64,000 nt of DNA from Candidatus Terraquivivens tengchongensis. GTDB lineage: Archaea; Thermoproteota; Nitrososphaeria_A; Caldarchaeales; Wolframiiraptoraceae. Each line of letters starts with the position of its first letter. The stretch's first letter is position 1. The DNA lies in contig JALNJZ010000003.1 of assembly GCA_023261845.1 (NCBI GenBank), positions 32,001-96,000 on the forward strand, given 5' to 3'. Below are positions 32,520 to 39,293 of the stretch, in pieces. A model generated the notes under the pieces. It was not told the DNA's origin and searched no databases. It saw only the letters and a program-made list of their open reading frames with translations. The position numbers and the translations under genes were made by a program.

Positions 32520-33050
32520 TCATGTAGGATATATCTTTTTTCTAAAAGATTTTCCCACCTCATAAAGGTAGACCCTATGCAGCCTTCCATCCTCAGCAGA
32601 GACTTTATCCACGACGACTAGGGGCCACCATCCCGGAACAGGAAAGTCATGGGCGACTACCCTCGCTCCAGGCTTAGCGTAAAGCTCAAGCCTTGGTTTT
32701 AGTATTTTCAAAGCGTCGTGGGTTAAATACAGGGTTATGACATCTGCCGGTCTAACATCAAACTCGAATAGATCTCCTCTTATTATCTTGAAGTTTTTGA
32801 TTCCTTTCTCCAGCAGTCTGTTATATGCATAGCTCGCCAGTATGGGTTTGGACTCAACACCTACGACGGAACACCCGTAATTACTGGCCGCCTCTACCAA
32901 TATTCTTCCATCACCACAGCCTAAGTCGACGAGTATCTGCCCTTCCTTCGGTTCTGCAAGGTCTACCATTAACTTAACTATGTCAATTGGTGATGGATAG
33001 AAGGGTATCTTCGAAGAAACGTTCTTTTTGGAGATGTGCGGATGGGACAT
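32520..33050 (-). CDS. Class I SAM-dependent methyltransferase, aKMT-like protein-lysine methyltransferase
   Basis: PFYPSP, DLGCGDGRI, VITLYL, GARVVAHDF. Confidence 0.8.
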   Translation of the reverse strand: MSHPHISKKNVSSKIPFYPSPIDIVKLMVDLAEPKEGQILVDLGCGDGRILVEAASNYGCSVVGVESKPILASYAYNRLLEKGIKNFKIIRGDLFEFDVRPADVITLYLTHDALKILKPRLELYAKPGARVVAHDFPVPGWWPLVVVDKVSAEDGRLHRVYLYEVGKSFRKKIYPT

Positions 33051-33082
33051 GATCCGCGTATGGTTTACCAGAAGAGCTTAGA

Positions 33083-34015
33083 TTAAAATCTTCCCCCGTC
33101 CTGAAGCAAATATAACAACAAAGCAGCCTCGGTATGTAGCCTGTTAGCAGCCTGTTGCCAAACAGCTGACCTTTCGCCGTTGATTACCGATGCCTCTACC
33201 TCCTCCTCTCTATGCGCTGGCAAACAATGCATGAATATCGCATCAGGTTTTGCTAAGGACATGAGCCTCTCGGTCACCTTGTATTTTGGATAAAAAATCT
33301 TCAACCTTTTTTCCCTCTCTTCCTCCTGACCCATCGAAACGAAAACGTCCGTGTAGACGACGTCAGCATCTCTCACGGCATCCTCTGGGTTTTCCGTCAG
33401 CTCTATCAAGCTCCCAGATTTCTTTACCCACTCCTTCGCCTGTGTTATCACAGTTTCCGGTGGCTGATACTCCTTAGGCGATGCTACCGCGATTCTGACA
33501 CCGAGTAACGAACATGCTTGGATAAGAGAATTACAAACGTTGTTTCCGTCACCCACATAAGCAACTTTAACGCTATGGATGTCGCCCTTTAGCTCCTTGA
33601 TCGTCATGATGTCAGCAAGTCCTTGGCAAGGATGGAATCTGTCGCTTAAGGCGTTAATTACCGGGACTGAACTATATTTTGCCATCTCGGAAAGCGTCTC
33701 ATGTTTATAGACTCTTGCAACGATAGCATCCACATAAGCTGATAGAACACGCATGGTGTCGCTTATTGGTTCTCCCCTGCTCAGCTGCATTTCGCTAACG
33801 CTGAGCGGTATGCTCTCGCCGCCGAGCTTTGTTATCGCTACCTGGAAGGATACTCTAGTCCTTGTAGAGGGTTTTTCAAAAATCAAAACCACGGACTTGC
33901 CGGATAGCGGTTTGTTATCAGGATATCCCTTTCTCTTAAAATTTATAGCCATGTCTATTATGTGAAGTATTTCTTCCGCAGTGTACCCTTCGAAGTCTAA
34001 GAAATGTCTGACCAT
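33083..34015 (-). CDS. argF: Ornithine carbamoyltransferase
   Basis: STRTR, HPCQ, SMG, HCLP. Confidence 0.97.
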   Translation of the reverse strand: MVRHFLDFEGYTAEEILHIIDMAINFKRKGYPDNKPLSGKSVVLIFEKPSTRTRVSFQVAITKLGGESIPLSVSEMQLSRGEPISDTMRVLSAYVDAIVARVYKHETLSEMAKYSSVPVINALSDRFHPCQGLADIMTIKELKGDIHSVKVAYVGDGNNVCNSLIQACSLLGVRIAVASPKEYQPPETVITQAKEWVKKSGSLIELTENPEDAVRDADVVYTDVFVSMGQEEEREKRLKIFYPKYKVTERLMSLAKPDAIFMHCLPAHREEEVEASVINGERSAVWQQAANRLHTEAALLLYLLQDGGRF

Positions 34016-34126
34016 GTCCAAATCGTATTACAAATGAATATTTAAGCGTACTAACTCATGGGGCACCGATAACCTTTATCTTAACTATCGCCTATAACGT
34101 AACGCAGCCTATAGGGGGCGGTTCAT

Positions 34127-35962
34127 ATATTTGTTGACGATGAAGGAAGAACGCTGGATAGGATACTGGAGGCATTAGCGTCACCTATAAGGATTGAGAT
34201 GCTGAAGCAGCTCTCGAAGCATGATATGAACTACACGGAGTTGATACGCTCGGTGGGCATGAACCCTCAGAAAGATGCAGGAAGGTTTTCTTACCACTTA
34301 AAAAAACTACTCAGCTCAAAACTCATAAGGATTAATGAAAAGACAAAGCTTTACGAGCTCTCGCATAGTGGTAGGGCAATGCTGGAAGTAATCGAACAAG
34401 CGAAGAGGAAGCTATCAGGCTCGGACTTGCTGATCGTCAGACGCAGTGAATGCTCGATAGAGTCCTTTGATAAGAATAAGATAGTGAACGCTTTAGTCAA
34501 GGAGGCAGGTATGCCAGCAAAACTCGCCCATAAAGTTGCATCCAGCGTGGAGGAAAAACTTCTCGACCTTAAGATAGAGTACCTCTCCGCACCTCTGATT
34601 AGGGAGCTTGTAAACTCTGTTCTGATAGACCAGGGTTTAGAAAAGTACAGACACAAGCTTACAAGGGTCGGGATGCCCATTTATGACGTCACTCAAACAA
34701 TCAAGAATGCCTCAAAGCAAGGTGGAGCCAATGCTGTCATGAGGACAGCAGCAAACTCAGTTTTGAAGGAGTACGTGCTGCTCAATGTGCTACCAAGAAA
34801 CGTAGCTGACGCTTATCTTTCCGGAATGATAGATATCTGCTTTCTAGAATCGTGGGTCATGTCGGTTTATGGTAAGGCGTACGATGCGAGTATGTTAAAC
34901 AAAGATGAGGGCGCAGATGTGTGCGAGGCTCTCATGATGAAATTCATGGAGGATATGTTCGCCGTCGAAAGAGAGTTCCTTCTGTACAATCTTAGCGACG
35001 TTATAGCAAATAAGAAGTTATCAAAACAGCTTGCATCAACACTCATAAAAACCTCATCACTAAGCCTGTTTGAAGGGCGTAAGTTTGTTCTCAATATTGC
35101 CGACGGTTTGGAAAACGTAGAGGACTTTGTGGAGACCTTTGATAAACATCAGAAGGATAACATCTCTATCGTAGTAAGTAAAGATTTGGTTGAGAATGCA
35201 CTCGCACGTTGTATTTCCAGAGAAGGACCCGAACTAGTATTCACAACAGGCTCCAAATCAGAGATTTTGGCGAGCGATGGATACAAAATCTCCGTTAATA
35301 ATCCAGAAAATACCGAAAGCTTTCTATGCGGCGTGGCTGCAGTAAACATGCCAAGATTGGCGCTACAGTGTGCAGGCAACGAAGAAGAATTTATGGAATC
35401 TATAAGAAGAACGATGCAGCTTATCATAACGGCATTCATGAAGAAGATGAACCTAACGAACATGCTTTATGGAAACGTGAACATCAAGCACCACTTTATA
35501 GTATCGCCGTGCGGAATATTCGAAGCGATAAAATGTTTAACGGGAGAGTATCCAACACACGAATCTTCAGATATTTTGTTGAATGTGTTGAGGGAAATGG
35601 TTAAACTAGCGTTGAAAGGCTCTAAGAAGGACTTCCAAATAGGAGTCGCCAATGCCTGTTCACTACAATCTTCTAAGAGGATGATTAAATCTGATATAGA
35701 GAAGTTCGGCTTTAAAACAGTATCAAACCTATCCCCCTATCACACGTCGTCTAACTTCACCTACTCGTCAACCGTCGTGCCCTATGATACAAAAATACCG
35801 CAGGAAGATAGGCTACAACTCGAAGCAAAAGTTGCCAAAGTTTTGAATGGTGGTTATATAGCGATGCTGCCTAAACCTACAAAGGATAAAGAAGCCCAAG
35901 AAGCTATTGAGCTTGCCGAGAGGTACCTAGAGGTCGGTTGCGATTCCTTAAAGTTCATTTAG
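34127..35962 (+). CDS. ArsR-HTH + ATP-cone + degenerate class III RNR (NrdD)-like fusion; start uncertain (first ATG at 34199)
   Basis: ALASPIRIEML HTH; VRRS...FDKNKI...APLIRELVN ATP cone; NMPRLA and GGYI NrdD-like segments; no glycyl-radical domain. Confidence 0.8.
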   Translation: MFVDDEGRTLDRILEALASPIRIEMLKQLSKHDMNYTELIRSVGMNPQKDAGRFSYHLKKLLSSKLIRINEKTKLYELSHSGRAMLEVIEQAKRKLSGSDLLIVRRSECSIESFDKNKIVNALVKEAGMPAKLAHKVASSVEEKLLDLKIEYLSAPLIRELVNSVLIDQGLEKYRHKLTRVGMPIYDVTQTIKNASKQGGANAVMRTAANSVLKEYVLLNVLPRNVADAYLSGMIDICFLESWVMSVYGKAYDASMLNKDEGADVCEALMMKFMEDMFAVEREFLLYNLSDVIANKKLSKQLASTLIKTSSLSLFEGRKFVLNIADGLENVEDFVETFDKHQKDNISIVVSKDLVENALARCISREGPELVFTTGSKSEILASDGYKISVNNPENTESFLCGVAAVNMPRLALQCAGNEEEFMESIRRTMQLIITAFMKKMNLTNMLYGNVNIKHHFIVSPCGIFEAIKCLTGEYPTHESSDILLNVLREMVKLALKGSKKDFQIGVANACSLQSSKRMIKSDIEKFGFKTVSNLSPYHTSSNFTYSSTVVPYDTKIPQEDRLQLEAKVAKVLNGGYIAMLPKPTKDKEAQEAIELAERYLEVGCDSLKFI

Positions 35963-36329
35963 ACTTTAGTAAGAGGATGGCCTTTGCTAAGTCTCCGCCT
36001 ACTTCTATGAGTGCCCTCTTCGCCTCATCCTCGGATACGCCTGCCTGTAGCGCTACGATGGTTATGTCCTCTGGCGTTGGCTCATAGGTTGGGGCCTTCT
36101 CTTCACTTACTCTGGGTTTTTGTTCAGAAACTTCGCCCCCTATGATCTGGTAGACTTTCTCGTCACCAACCTGCAAAACAACGACGGTTGGCTCTTTTAT
36201 TATTACGTCCTTGTCTGGCAAACGGATCAACACTTCTTTAGCAACGTTTTGTTCCCTCACGTCAAGACCCAAGCTGCCAAGTAGCTTTGATTGCATCCTT
36301 CTAAGTTCGCGCGAACTCAGCTTTCTCAT
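35955..36329 (-). CDS. nac: Nascent polypeptide-associated complex protein
   Basis: RELRRM, YQIIG, UBA 'QAGVSEDEAKRAL...GDLAKAI'. Confidence 0.93.
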   Translation of the reverse strand: MRKLSSRELRRMQSKLLGSLGLDVREQNVAKEVLIRLPDKDVIIKEPTVVVLQVGDEKVYQIIGGEVSEQKPRVSEEKAPTYEPTPEDITIVALQAGVSEDEAKRALIEVGGDLAKAILLLKSK

Positions 36330-36787
36330 AAAGTCCCGCCCCTGACCTTTCTAACCTTCACAGCCAGACCCCGCCTAAACTTACCCATCTCGCAACCGCT
36401 AATCACAGCTTTACCTACGGCCAATAGTTCACCCTTATCGTTTTCTATGATAACCTCTTCCCCAGGTAGAATTTTTGGGTCAGCCTCAAGAACGTGTTTA
36501 GAGAATAGAGATTTCCCCTCAACGATGAATCTAACAGCATCATCGGATGCAATGACTCTAAACCTACCAGGTGGTAACAAAGCCCTCAACCTCATCGCAC
36601 CCTCGACCGTCAACACTATAAAACCATCGTTGCTCCTTACGGTCGCCAAAAGTTTACCGTCTAGGTAGATCCTCTTGGGTTTACCTGTACGTTTTGACAC
36701 TTCAATAACGGTCCCGTCCGGGAAAAGCTGTTCACCCACATCCGTGCCGAATTGATAATTCAAAATTGCCCTGACAACGTCTAACAA
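36326..36787 (-). CDS. PUA-domain protein (archaeosine TGT C-terminal-like)
   Basis: YQFG, GKSLFSKHV, GEEV, AVKVR. Confidence 0.85.
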   Translation of the reverse strand: MLDVVRAILNYQFGTDVGEQLFPDGTVIEVSKRTGKPKRIYLDGKLLATVRSNDGFIVLTVEGAMRLRALLPPGRFRVIASDDAVRFIVEGKSLFSKHVLEADPKILPGEEVIIENDKGELLAVGKAVISGCEMGKFRRGLAVKVRKVRGGTL

Positions 36788-36788
36788 C

Positions 36789-38042
36789 TCAACTACCCTC
36801 TATCCTGAACGATTTAACTAGGCGGAGCCTCTTCAACTTTTCGGCTAGATGATTAGGTGCCTCTACCCTCAGCTCTATGAATCCATCTTCATATTTTAAC
36901 TCTAAAACGTTTGACTTCTCACATATCTCAGACAAAACCTTCACAGAACTTTCATCACTTCCGTCTATCTTGGCTGTAGCTATCACATAATTTCCCATCA
37001 TTGAAGCTATGGTTTGCTCCAATACGTCTATATTGGTACGGTACAGGGCAGATATCATTACGTAGGGTAGTGTTAGGCCAAGACTTTCAACCTTTTTTTT
37101 GACATCGCTTACAAGGTCCATCTTGTTCAATATGATAAGCGTCGGTATTGAGTGAGCTCCTATCGAGCCTAAGGTTTCTAGTGAGTAGGCTAGCTTTTCC
37201 CTGATGATTTCTACAGGTTCTGAAAAATCTGCGACCAAAAGTATTAAGTCTGAGAACAGTATCTCGCTCAACGTAGAATGGAATGCATCGATGAGTGTTG
37301 AAGGCAGGTTTTTGATGAACCCCACAGTATCGGATAGGAATGCACTCCTGCCCTTTATCTTAACGAGCCTGACCGTCGTAGAAAGTGTTGTGAAAAGCCT
37401 GTTATCAACAGGTACGCTCTCTGATGCTAATACGTTGAAGAGTGTTGATTTACCCGCGTTAGTATAGCCGACGAGCGATATCGTTGGGATTCCGTACTTT
37501 TCCCTTCGAAGCCTGAACAACTCGCGTCTTTTCTTTATGCTGGCCAGCTTCTTGATCACCGTATGTATTCTTCTGTTAATCTCGTTATAGTAAACGTCAG
37601 CTTCATAAGCACCTAGTCCGTGGAAACCTGGCTGCTCACCCATCTTCGCAAGCCGAACTTTTTCCTTAGCCCTTGAGAGCTCGTACTTTAGCTCCGCTAG
37701 CTTTATTTGCAGCTTGGCCTCTTTCGAGGATGCATGAAGGGAAAATATCTCCAATATTAGTTGAGTTCTTGACATAACAGGGATGCCTAAGGCTTTAGCC
37801 AGGTTATATTCTTGGACGGTCTTTATGTCGTTTTCGAAAATTACCTTTTCTACGTTAAACTTCTTGATTGCGTCCTTTAACTCCGCCAGCTTTCCAGGTC
37901 CGATGTTATACTTTGGATGCGGATAGCGGTATTGCACTAACTCGTACACCACTTCATAGCCAGCAGTCAGACATAACTCCCTAAGCTCGTCTAAGTTCGG
38001 CCTCTCGCCAGGCTGCACACGATGAACTATCGCTACCCTCAA
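36789..38042 (-). CDS. hflX: GTPase HflX
   Basis: LILEIF, GYTNAGKS, LFTTL, DTVGF, NKMD. Confidence 0.95.
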   Translation of the reverse strand: MRVAIVHRVQPGERPNLDELRELCLTAGYEVVYELVQYRYPHPKYNIGPGKLAELKDAIKKFNVEKVIFENDIKTVQEYNLAKALGIPVMSRTQLILEIFSLHASSKEAKLQIKLAELKYELSRAKEKVRLAKMGEQPGFHGLGAYEADVYYNEINRRIHTVIKKLASIKKRRELFRLRREKYGIPTISLVGYTNAGKSTLFNVLASESVPVDNRLFTTLSTTVRLVKIKGRSAFLSDTVGFIKNLPSTLIDAFHSTLSEILFSDLILLVADFSEPVEIIREKLAYSLETLGSIGAHSIPTLIILNKMDLVSDVKKKVESLGLTLPYVMISALYRTNIDVLEQTIASMMGNYVIATAKIDGSDESSVKVLSEICEKSNVLELKYEDGFIELRVEAPNHLAEKLKRLRLVKSFRIEGS

Positions 38043-38558: not shown

Positions 38559-39293
38559 ATGATATTCGTGGACAGTAAAGAGGCGTCGAAGAGTAAGAGG
38601 ATACTTGAAATGTTAACTAACGTGCTTGGCCAACAGGTTGGCATAAAGAACTTAGAGGTCGGAGACTATCTTCTTGATGGTAGTGAGGGTATGGCCGTTA
38701 TCGAGAGGAAGACTGTAACCGACCTGCTGAGTTCTCTGAAACCCGACGAATCGGGCCGCGGGAGGATATGGTCCCAGTTAGATAGATTCGCTGAAATGAA
38801 TTCCTTCGAGAAGATTCTGATAATTGAGGGGTGGCTGGGTGCGATAAGAAAGATGACAGAGTGGAACGAGGCCAGCGTATACAGAGCGCTAGAAAGCATC
38901 CAGAAAGGTTACGAAGTCGTCGTTATCCACACACCAGATTGGAAAGGTACTGGAGCTTACGTGATAGCAAAATACAAGAGCCTCTCGGAGAAACCGGAGC
39001 CGAGGGACATAAGACTTCGGGTGAGTTCTGTTTCTATGACGCCGGAACAACAGGCGCTCTACATCGTGGAAGGGCTTCCAAGGGTTGGACCTAGTTTAGC
39101 CAAAGCCCTCCTCAAGGCCTATGGTTCCGTGAAGAACGTGTTCGATTCATTGGCCTCGAAACCCGTTGAACTCCTAAGGGATGAGGTGGCTAAGTTTTTG
39201 GGCAGAAAACCTCCCGAGGTTGTTATAAAGAATGCTAAGGATGTTATCACGAAGGAAATAAAATTAGAAGAACTTGAAGAAAGAAAATCTTAG
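38559..39293 (+). CDS. xpf: Short XPF/ERCC4 structure-specific endonuclease
   Basis: VDSKE, GDY, IERKT..DL..S, HhH (LPRVGPSLA). Confidence 0.9.
   Translation: MIFVDSKEASKSKRILEMLTNVLGQQVGIKNLEVGDYLLDGSEGMAVIERKTVTDLLSSLKPDESGRGRIWSQLDRFAEMNSFEKILIIEGWLGAIRKMTEWNEASVYRALESIQKGYEVVVIHTPDWKGTGAYVIAKYKSLSEKPEPRDIRLRVSSVSMTPEQQALYIVEGLPRVGPSLAKALLKAYGSVKNVFDSLASKPVELLRDEVAKFLGRKPPEVVIKNAKDVITKEIKLEELEERKS

Follow-up and report, generated by a model that had tools for sequence, protein, structure and literature searches.

The window, the whole stretch of 64,000 nucleotides analysed here from the hot-spring archaeon Candidatus Terraquivivens tengchongensis, contains a gene that joins a wHTH domain, an ATP-cone, and an RNR-type barrel without catalytic residues (Table 1). 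An earlier note, made from the DNA letters, had the gene transcribed divergently from argF, an arrangement confirmed by the TIGR00658 match on the minus strand. All motifs quoted in that note fall in a single plus-strand frame in the ORF translation, which runs without a stop from 34115 to the stop codon at 35960-35962 and yields 615 residues; the chain ends 37 residues past NGGY, soon after GGYI, as had been stated. Aligned across four genomes of the genus, the region between the two genes shows 87% mean column identity; it includes an A/T-rich stretch at 34125-34132 that may be TATA-like. Inverted and direct repeats in 33990-34210 were limited to weak short pairs, and Rfam models gave no match at E <= 1 within 33000-37000.

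Table 1. Features of the locus, given in window positions with the evidence or detail for each.
Feature	Position	Strand	Evidence or detail
argF (ornithine carbamoyltransferase)	33083..34021	-	NCBIfam TIGR00658, 403.8 bits against a cut-off of 280.85
132-bp intergenic region between argF and the wHTH/ATP-cone/NrdD-like gene	34022..34153	.	Four-genome alignment
wHTH/ATP-cone/NrdD-like gene (barrel dead)	34154..35962	+	602 codons from CTG 34154, 587 from ATG 34199; stop 35960-35962
CTG codon at the site of the congeners' TTG start	34154..34156	+	Alignment with congeners
wHTH (DUF7347, ArsR/SmtB-like), recognition helix motif DAGRFSYHLKKL	34166..34393	+	Pfam PF24038, family-profile matches
ATP-cone, hairpin and first helix IVRRSECSIESFDKNKI	34436..34648	+	Pfam PF03477
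Conserved linker and first helices (YRHKLTRVGMPIYDV ... LPRNVADAYLSG)	34649..34858	+	Invariant alignment columns
RNR-type alpha/beta barrel without catalytic residues	34715..35959	+	AF2 model, VIA-align, residue counts

Pfam models matched the 615-residue translation in three places, namely the DUF7347 wHTH (PF24038) at residues 18-93 with 38.6 bits against a cut-off of 27.6, the ATP-cone (PF03477) at residues 108-178 with 36.2 bits against 25.8, and NRDD (PF13597) at residues 398-597, where profile positions 272-489 of 562 were covered with 65.9 bits against 26.2. The NCBIfam NrdD equivalog TIGR02487 scored 67.4 bits, below its cut-off of 326.35. An AF2 model (pLDDT 82.7, pTM 0.69) folds residues 2-69 into helices and a beta-hairpin. 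Comparison of an AlphaFold model with NrdD by Foldseek, which the earlier note had proposed, revealed a ten-stranded alpha/beta barrel of the RNR/glycyl-radical-enzyme type, with NrdD structures as top matches (E 1e-15 to 1e-9). Structural alignment with VIA-align gave a Z of 28.4 against Prevotella copri NrdD (8p27_A) and 28.2 against phage T4 NrdD (1h7b), with 393-394 residues aligned at 2.9-3.0 A. Within the family to which the protein belongs, mean pairwise identity across 58 sequences is highest in the ATP-cone (66%), followed by the wHTH (53%), the linker (49%), and the barrel (20-28%), making the cone the most conserved domain. The recognition helix of the wHTH is nearly identical in members from Bathyarchaeia and from ammonia oxidisers, and the stretch formed by the linker and first helices is common to one clade of true NrdD (P0066-P0071).

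Catalytic features were counted by alignment of 62 family proteins with nine true NrdD. The strand-A Cys, present in all nine NrdD, is a Gly in the window protein and is retained in a single family protein (P0045). Columns corresponding to the finger-loop CC within the (S/E)CCR motif are deleted throughout the family and occupied in all nine NrdD. The HxHD motif, which reads DICF in the window protein, is likewise found in 9/9 NrdD and in none of the family proteins; PMC11226230 describes this motif as holding the substrate triphosphate in NrdD. At the position of the radical Gly, seven of the nine NrdD carry the residue as opposed to 0/62 family proteins, whose rows show a gap in 54 cases, Ala in three, and Ser in five. 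The window protein ends before the glycyl-radical motif R-x-x-G-[YF] would be reached. It also lacks the C-terminal Cys4 Zn ribbon; among 79 related loci, 53 encode this ribbon and 26 do not, and RxxG[YF] follows the ribbon in none of the 53 ORFs that have it. The finger-loop Cys, Zn site, and glycyl-radical loop, described in the earlier note as unrecognisable, are thus all absent from the alignment of catalytic residues, and this alignment shows the barrel of the window protein to be catalytically dead.

This genome is 99.42% complete. The observation that no nrdG lies nearby extends to the whole of it, where NrdG models with cut-offs of 131.15 and 126.1 bits scored at best 53.1 and 34.4 bits, respectively, both from generic radical-SAM proteins. 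No second NRDD match occurs elsewhere in the genome, nor did the NrdR model TIGR00244 find a match at E <= 0.001. The search for a separate active RNR, which had also been suggested, identified one candidate, a predicted 907-aa protein combining PF02867 with an ATP-cone. This nrdJ-like gene of class I/II type is the sole PF02867 RNR of the genome and is located on the same contig, 65 kb from the wHTH-bearing gene.

Relatives of the gene are widespread: of 301 genomes sampled from the phylum, 210 carry one, as do all 43 sampled members of the taxonomic family that holds the AmoA-positive genomes. Public records often name them 'anaerobic ribonucleoside-triphosphate reductase', including proteins from Nitrosopumilus and Nitrosotenuis, and literature searches found no paper on the family. 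A phylogenetic tree placed 26 family rows on one side of a branch and 19 NrdD rows on the other (SH-aLRT 100), showing that the family has a single origin. Judged from these sequence relationships, NrdD is the clear evolutionary parent of the family.

The gene neighborhoods of these relatives back the proposal in the earlier note that the protein is a regulator. A true nrdD is situated directly downstream of the family gene in 12 Bathyarchaeia loci, nine of them complete with RxxGY and three cut by contig ends, and a glutaredoxin-like gene (grx) is placed between the two in five of the 12. Among AmoA-positive genomes, i.e., ammonia oxidisers, a nrdJ-like RNR gene adjoins the family gene in 10/10 loci. 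Twenty further loci, drawn from some 17 taxonomic families, contained an adjacent RNR in four cases and pyrB, pyrI, or pyrH in 11. Across the 79 loci analysed, out of at least 563 for the family, one of these pyr genes was found at most 3 kb from the family gene in 38, and argF was a neighbor in eight.

In Bathyarchaeia, the stretch separating the family gene from grx/nrdD contains a conserved 17-base repeat. Its exact site occurs once in a complete Bathyarchaeia genome, and searches of that genome with up to three mismatches returned eight matches versus 23 in a reversed control, i.e., no enrichment, so the repeat is tied to the family protein by position alone. A position weight matrix built from nine such sites reached at best 18.1 of a possible 26.9 in the genome studied here, with no match at nrdJ or at the wHTH-bearing gene. 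By eye, the gene preceding nrdJ ends in a sequence that resembles the 17-mer at 12-13 of 16 positions, below the scan threshold. Upstream of nrdJ in ammonia oxidisers, a conserved block expressed as an IUPAC pattern gave 13 matches in five genomes and two in the control. Eight of these matches are located away from nrdJ: six inside ORFs, one intergenic (L170), and one in a duplicated copy of a promoter fragment. We rejected a regulon defined by this block, the matches away from nrdJ lying mostly within ORFs. No 8-mer was common to the upstream regions of the family gene and nrdJ in more than two of ten related genomes, which counts against the regulator reading, and no conserved palindrome was found upstream of nrdJ, where one genome had two weak pairs and two others had none.

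Taken together, we judge it moderately probable that the gene encodes a nucleotide-sensing transcription factor derived from a fossil class III RNR and acting, like NrdR, on genes of dNTP and pyrimidine supply. In the mechanism we propose, the N-terminal wHTH would bind DNA, the ATP-cone would sense adenine nucleotides, distinguishing ATP from dATP, and the dead NrdD barrel would serve as a scaffold, probably dimeric by analogy with NrdD. Nucleotide binding would then, via this scaffold, alter how two wHTH domains are presented to DNA. Targets would be deoxyribonucleotide and pyrimidine supply genes, for which candidates in this genome are its own promoter and argF, which have the intergenic region in common, as well as the distant nrdJ-like gene. 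That the gene adjoins argF here, and not an RNR gene, counts against this reading, as do the 65 kb that separate it from the nrdJ-like gene and the loss of its canonical start codon. The earlier note had proposed the RNR scaffold as a (d)NTP sensor. The dead RNR fold agrees with that proposal, and we refine the position of the sensor, which is likely the ATP-cone as the most conserved domain of the family, and unlikely the old active site, since the triphosphate-binding HxHD motif is gone from all 62 family proteins.

Comparison with known systems helps to place this architecture. Bacterial NrdR is genetically tied to RNR genes, as is the family described here, and the expected logic would be alike, with the ATP/dATP state of the cone setting DNA binding. 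With targets in dNTP and pyrimidine supply, the protein would work like bacterial NrdR, though its DNA-binding part is unrelated: NrdR (TIGR00244) consists of an N-terminal Zn ribbon and an ATP-cone in about 150 aa, whereas the window protein starts with a wHTH, is about four times longer, and includes an entire dead RNR barrel. The protein falls outside the NrdR family, and the candidate cis elements do not resemble NrdR boxes. PMC9110341 describes NrdR as rare in archaea.

When compared with solved NrdD structures (P. copri 8p27/8p28, Streptococcus thermophilus 9d3x, Thermotoga maritima 4coi, and phage T4 1h7b), the window protein shares the fold, the ATP-cone with its linker, the motif N-x-P-R, and the S-A-x-R..D block. 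It differs in lacking the catalytic features listed above together with the glycyl-radical domain, in the loss of the Zn ribbon from its clade, in the absence of NrdG from its genome, and in the added wHTH. With a family profile, its N-terminal 90 residues align to ArsR/SmtB proteins at E 1e-5 to 5e-3; solved NmtR (2lkp), NolR (4omy), ArsR (6j05), HlyU, and SmtB (1r22) were matched, all but HlyU also serving as structures for comparison, and the recognition helix ends in H-L-x-x-L as in this group. The best model for the wHTH is nevertheless DUF7347, with HTH_5 (18.4 against a cut-off of 22) and NF033788 (29.4 against 55) both below threshold, and the predicted effector part consists of an ATP-cone and barrel in place of a metal site. 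Enzyme-derived transcription factors are exemplified by MocR/GabR, in which an aminotransferase fold is combined with a wHTH. The family resembles these in joining a DNA-binding domain to a full enzyme fold that, with catalysis given up or changed, serves as effector or oligomerisation module, and differs from them in that the fold is that of a radical enzyme, an RNR. Literature searches found no transcription factor derived from an RNR.

An alternative reading keeps the same architecture and sensor and assigns the protein to the carbamoyl-phosphate branch point between arginine and pyrimidine, with argF and itself as targets here and pyrB, pyrI, or pyrH in Bathyarchaeia. ArsR-type regulators often act on divergent neighbors, which fits the well conserved intergenic region common to argF and the gene, and the argF and pyr neighbors counted across the 79 loci and the 20 further ones point the same way. 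Nevertheless, we consider this job assignment unlikely. Bathyarchaeia pyrB genes are mostly convergent with the family gene, so the two would have no promoter in common; moreover, synteny alone poorly explains why the family gene stands in tandem with RNR genes belonging to two classes in two lineages, and the protein descends from an RNR and carries an RNR-type ATP-cone.

The protein could instead bind DNA without sensing adenine nucleotides any longer, responding to another ligand, playing a constitutive structural or chromatin-like role, or partnering the active RNR. The canonical ATP-cone hairpin reads V-x-K-R, and the family hairpin V-R-[RK]-[ST] departs from its K-R pair, which counts against an ATP/dATP sensor. 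The Pfam score of the cone is also modest, at 36 bits where cones in the scanned RNRs reach 78-83, and substrate motifs are gone from the barrel. On the other hand, both the hairpin pattern and E-x-F-D-[KR]-x-K-I persist in almost every one of the 62 family proteins, and the cone is the most conserved part across much of a phylum, which argues for a retained ligand site. Loss of adenine sensing therefore appears improbable to us.

The start of the gene is uncertain, since CTG stands at 34154-34156, where three congeners start with TTG. The start at 34127 given in the earlier note is wrong, the codon there being ATA, and an in-frame codon check found no ATG, GTG, or TTG between the stop at 34112 and ATG 34199, where initiation would cost the wHTH its first helix. 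Although a lost start codon could mark a decaying pseudogene in this genome, we regard this as very improbable. The frame is open over 615 codons, and the protein is 82% identical over its full length to the nearest named congener. Relative to L017, the codons from 34154 to 34199 show two synonymous changes and one Glu/Asp change, and such few and mild differences suggest that the stretch is still coding. In addition, DNA contigs of three other runs, which stem from three studies, show no variant of the CTG, and RNA-library contigs include the gene, one of them spanning 34145-35102, with 33952-34119 left uncovered.

That the protein is an active, unorthodox class III RNR, as the database names of its relatives would have it, is the least credible of these alternatives and can practically be set aside given the missing NrdG, the TIGR02487 score far below cut-off, and the presence of members in ammonia oxidisers, which are aerobes. 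T. maritima NrdD, according to PMC4493059, is active despite having Ile, not Cys, at the finger-loop tip (Ile359 in the crystal structure, with the SCCR motif nearby); however, that enzyme retains Cys125, the SCCR motif, and Gly621, for which the window protein has no counterparts, in addition to its missing HxHD.

Returning to the reading as a nucleotide-sensing regulator, the distribution of the family invites a bolder and more tentative scenario, to which we assign slightly less than an even chance. The protein may be an ancient regulator dating to the common ancestor of Bathyarchaeia and Nitrososphaeria and the missing master switch of archaeal dNTP and pyrimidine supply. A duplicate of a class III RNR would have lost its activity and gained a wHTH by fusion; the resulting regulator would have outlived the enzyme in lineages moving to oxygen, and it may now control the class II-type RNR in ammonia oxidisers. 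The conversion would be recorded in a decay series among living members, leading from a Zn ribbon with a Gly-to-Ala/Ser tail through the Zn ribbon only to no ribbon at all.

We regard the family protein as a probable, hitherto undescribed switch governing how DNA building blocks are supplied. Regulation of RNR is textbook knowledge in bacteria, where it is exerted by NrdR, and, if our reading is true, a family found across so many of the sampled genomes fills the archaeal gap left by the rarity of NrdR. The current label of its members as anaerobic reductases can steer metabolic reconstructions wrongly towards anaerobic dNTP synthesis. In named ammonia oxidisers the gene lies beside its likely target, which should make the hypothesis directly testable. 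If confirmed, the protein would be unusual among pseudoenzymes as a transcription factor whose body is a retained radical enzyme.

The gene under study, a plus-strand fusion of a winged helix-turn-helix (wHTH), an ATP-cone and a dead NrdD, occupies a single frame that is open from 34115 to a stop at 35960–35962 and preceded by a TAG at 34112–34114. All strings that the earlier note had quoted lie in this frame, but the start it had proposed, 34127, falls on ATA. The open frame contains no in-frame ATG, GTG or TTG upstream of an ATG at 34199. At the position of the window's CTG at 34154–34156, three genomes of the same genus carry TTG, at which their public gene models begin, reading MDRIL... 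Set against L017, the family locus of a related genome, the window has two synonymous substitutions and one Glu/Asp exchange between 34154 and 34199, so that this stretch still looks coding. No variant at 34154 was found in DNA contigs (three further runs, three studies; the window DNA itself may stem from one run that is nearly identical). Because of the congener TTG, the coding-like stretch and the absence of a variant in further DNA runs, we give the gene from the CTG onwards. Translation from ATG 34199 would remove the first helix of the wHTH; the gene may have a non-canonical start or begin at this ATG, 45 bases downstream of the CTG. Metatranscriptomic contigs cover the gene in one run, a 958-base contig spanning 34145–35102 and shorter ones lying over parts of 35333–35840. 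These RNA-library contigs are a hint of expression and no more; they may derive from DNA and cannot fix the start.

Features of the family gene, its surroundings and the candidate elements (residues are numbered in the 615-residue translation; L-numbers denote genomic loci)
Feature	Position	Strand	Remark
wHTH/ATP-cone/dead-NrdD gene	34154-35962	+	start uncertain: CTG 34154 or ATG 34199
DUF7347	residues 18-93		Pfam, over cut-off
ATP-cone	residues 108-178		Pfam, over cut-off
NRDD	residues 398-597		Pfam, over cut-off; profile positions 272-489 of 562
Ribosomal proteins, NusG, methyltransferase, argF	before family gene	-	minus-strand side in window
NAC, PUA protein, HflX, aMBF1	after plus-strand family gene	-	in window
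17-base element	L058:10357, L085:10351, L088:10372, L091:10354, L044:10505, L072:5304, L075:2579, L094:2343, L059:4212		
CGGTGT[AC]AA..TTGA block	L131:8092-8108 and matching places in L126, L127, L132, L133, L135		~50 bases upstream of nrdJ-like TATA-like box

Against the NCBIfam NrdD equivalog, the gene product scores 67.4 bits, with a cut-off of 326.35. An AlphaFold2 model built with 58 family sequences as input has a mean pLDDT of 82.7 and a pTM of 0.69, and the Foldseek comparison with NrdD that the earlier note had suggested places class III RNRs at the top of the PDB matches (P. copri, S. thermophilus, T. maritima and phage T4; E 1e-15 to 1e-9). VIA-align of model residues 188–602 yields Z scores of 28.4 and 28.2, with 393–394 residues aligned at 2.9–3.0 Å. 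The first 90 positions of the family profile match solved ArsR/SmtB-type regulators.

Catalytic positions were compared in an alignment of 62 proteins of this architecture (the family) and 9 true NrdD, i.e., class III RNRs, from the same search. The strand-A cysteine is present in 9/9 NrdD versus a single family member (P0045) and is Gly in the window protein, while the finger-loop CC of (S/E)CCR, found in 9/9 NrdD, is deleted in 62/62 family proteins. Seven of the nine NrdD carry the radical glycine (one remaining row is truncated, one diverged) and 0/62 family proteins do, which have a gap (54), Ala (3) or Ser (5) in that column. The HxHD motif, to which PMC11226230 assigns recognition of the substrate triphosphate in NrdD, occurs in 9/9 NrdD versus 0/62 family proteins and reads DICF in the window protein. 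T. maritima NrdD is active with Ile at the finger-loop tip, according to PMC4493059, and retains Cys125, SCCR and Gly621; the window protein lacks all three. These results bear out the original reading that finger-loop Cys, Zn site and glycyl-radical loop are unrecognisable, the clade of the window protein being without the Zn ribbon. Judged by these residues, the enzyme is catalytically dead, and in one chain the wHTH and the ATP-cone are joined to an RNR barrel that is complete but lacks its catalytic residues.

In the host genome (completeness 99.42%), this gene is the sole NRDD match, and no NrdR and no NrdG above cut-off were found, which extends the reported absence of a nearby nrdG to the whole genome. 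A search for a separate RNR returned one PF02867 protein of 907 aa with its own ATP-cone, encoded ~65 kb further along the same contig. Upstream of this nrdJ-like gene (L002:3894-3960), a Metallophos_2 gene precedes at a gap of only ~37 bases. The annotated GTG start is not conserved across the genus, and the true start may be a TTG deeper in the gene that is preceded by GGAGGT, which would give a leader of ~80 bases. The nrdJ-like genes of two order-level relatives match in two or three pieces, each gene within one uninterrupted frame (1298 and 1736 codons; G014:C20:27950-31774 and G017:C43:664-5787), a pattern that resembles intein-like insertions around residues 376 and 487.

A word-based search ranked 65 proteins of this architecture (535–706 aa) ahead of the first true NrdD, and a scan of species-representative genomes yielded at least 563 family loci. 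Among the matches listed, the nearest are from Candidatus Terraquivivens yellowstonensis (82% identity) and T. tikiterensis (73%), and Bathyarchaeia account for most other loci. An even phylum sample (E <= 1e-20) contains the family in 210/301 genomes and 86/123 genera; some taxonomic families are wholly positive (f5 43/43, f1 17/17) and others have no member (f14 0/20, f7 0/13, f21 0/10, f25 0/10). Since AmoA is present in 5/5 genomes tested, f5 is ammonia-oxidising, and exact look-ups recovered members in Nitrosopumilus sp. K4 and Candidatus Nitrosotenuis cloacae. L089, from a record titled Krumholzibacteriaceae bacterium, has a family gene of the Bathyarchaeia type accompanied by pyrB, pyrI, NAC and HflX, arranged as in archaea, and its bacterial label is probably a binning error. 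At L074:3032-9176 (Bathyarchaeia), one family gene is in fragments and another, intact copy lies on the opposite strand, the two separated by pieces of pyrB; the locus was either rearranged or misassembled.

A maximum-likelihood tree (quick IQ-TREE search, 45 rows, midpoint root for drawing only) places 26 family rows on one side of a branch with an SH-aLRT of 100, and the window's ribbon-less clade (11 rows, support 99) is nested among Zn-ribbon-bearing forms. The ribbon is kept in 53/79 loci and absent in 26/79. RxxG[YF] follows it in 0/53 ribbon-bearing loci, many of whose tails read R-x-S-A-[KR]-Y or end at F-D-R-F. The family members form a decay series. Mean pairwise identity is highest in the ATP-cone (66%), followed by wHTH (53%), linker (49%) and barrel (20–28%), and the recognition helix D-A-G-[KR]-F-[SA]-Y-H-L-[KR] is near-identical in all lineages.

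As the earlier note had described, the gene is transcribed divergently from argF; the whole gene order given in the table is common to its order-level relatives. A 244-aa ORF of the window at 38559–39293 resembles Hef/XPF in the nuclease end alone (NF010337, 99.6 bits, cut-off 610) and is thus a short XPF-like nuclease that lacks the helicase. Twelve Bathyarchaeia loci have a true nrdD immediately after the family gene and co-oriented with it; nine of these nrdD genes are complete (Zn ribbon or RxxGY present), contig ends cut the other three, and a glutaredoxin-like gene lies in between in 5/12 (an automatic count also gives 12/79, but includes the second family copy of L074 and misses the L094 fragment). 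In AmoA-type genomes, a nrdJ-like RNR lies beside the family gene in 10/10 loci, nine in tandem with the RNR downstream and one divergent. This neighbour is a homologue of the window genome's RNR (46–48% identity) and shows PF02867 and an ATP-cone in the four loci checked with Pfam. Within 3 kb of the family gene, pyrB occurs in 36/79 loci, pyrI in 18, pyrH in 3 and argF in 8; none of these is present in 27, often on short contigs. Restricting the count to the 51 loci with flanks of 1.5 kb or more to the left and to the right leaves 10 with an RNR near by, 27 with a pyr gene, 32 with at least one of the two, 7 with argF alone and 12 with none. A further 20 loci from some 17 taxonomic families show an adjoining RNR in four (one nrdJ-like, three nrdD), pyrB, pyrI or pyrH in 11, with L153 having both, argF in one and none of these in five. 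The family combines strong conservation of wHTH and ATP-cone with genetic linkage to RNR and pyrimidine genes. What speaks most strongly for a role in RNR control is that two lineages link the family gene to working RNRs, and that these belong to two different classes.

In nine Bathyarchaeia loci, the stretch between the family gene and grx/nrdD carries a common 17-base element of the type TATACAGAATTTTATAC, mostly ~70–100 bases before the next start; in two of the loci the distance is greater, perhaps because of an intervening small gene; palindromic variants occur in L069/L079 and L048/L065. A matrix from the nine sites gives 16 matches (score >=14) in 970 kb of loci, nine of them the training sites; fifteen of the 16 follow closely after the family gene and the remaining one precedes it. 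Ammonia oxidisers have a different block, CGGTGT[AC]AA..TTGA, conserved upstream of nrdJ. By position only, both are candidate operators; in genome scans neither defined a wider regulon, and neither was found in the window genome. One genome holds, at a separate site, a near-identical second copy of ~100 bases of its nrdJ promoter region (L167:1480-1600; G212:C1:~957100), adjoining ORFs without Pfam-type identity, one of which, by eye, is small and AbrB-like; this copy may be the border of an integrated element.

We propose that the barrel retains the NrdD dimer and that the ATP-cone would bind ATP or dATP. Nucleotide binding would move or re-associate the cones, as in active NrdD and NrdR, and the cone shift would alter how the two wHTH domains are arranged or how the protein oligomerises them; promoters of nrd, pyr and possibly arg genes, its own promoter included, would be occupied accordingly. 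In its own genome, the gene is physically linked to a single promoter region, the one it has in common with argF; that it also controls the distant nrdJ-like gene there is plausible but unsupported. The likeness to NrdR would lie in the mode of working, whereas the protein fails membership, lacking the N-terminal Zn ribbon and a TIGR00244 match. NrdD is the parent of the family by descent, yet the window protein fails seven of the eight NrdD features tested. Full-text literature searching found no description of the family, though subscription journals and some supplements may hold one, and look-ups within an RNR phylogeny preprint, the RNRdb paper and the NrdR paper gave none. The family would be a variant of a kind already known, the enzyme-derived, nucleotide-sensing transcription factor.
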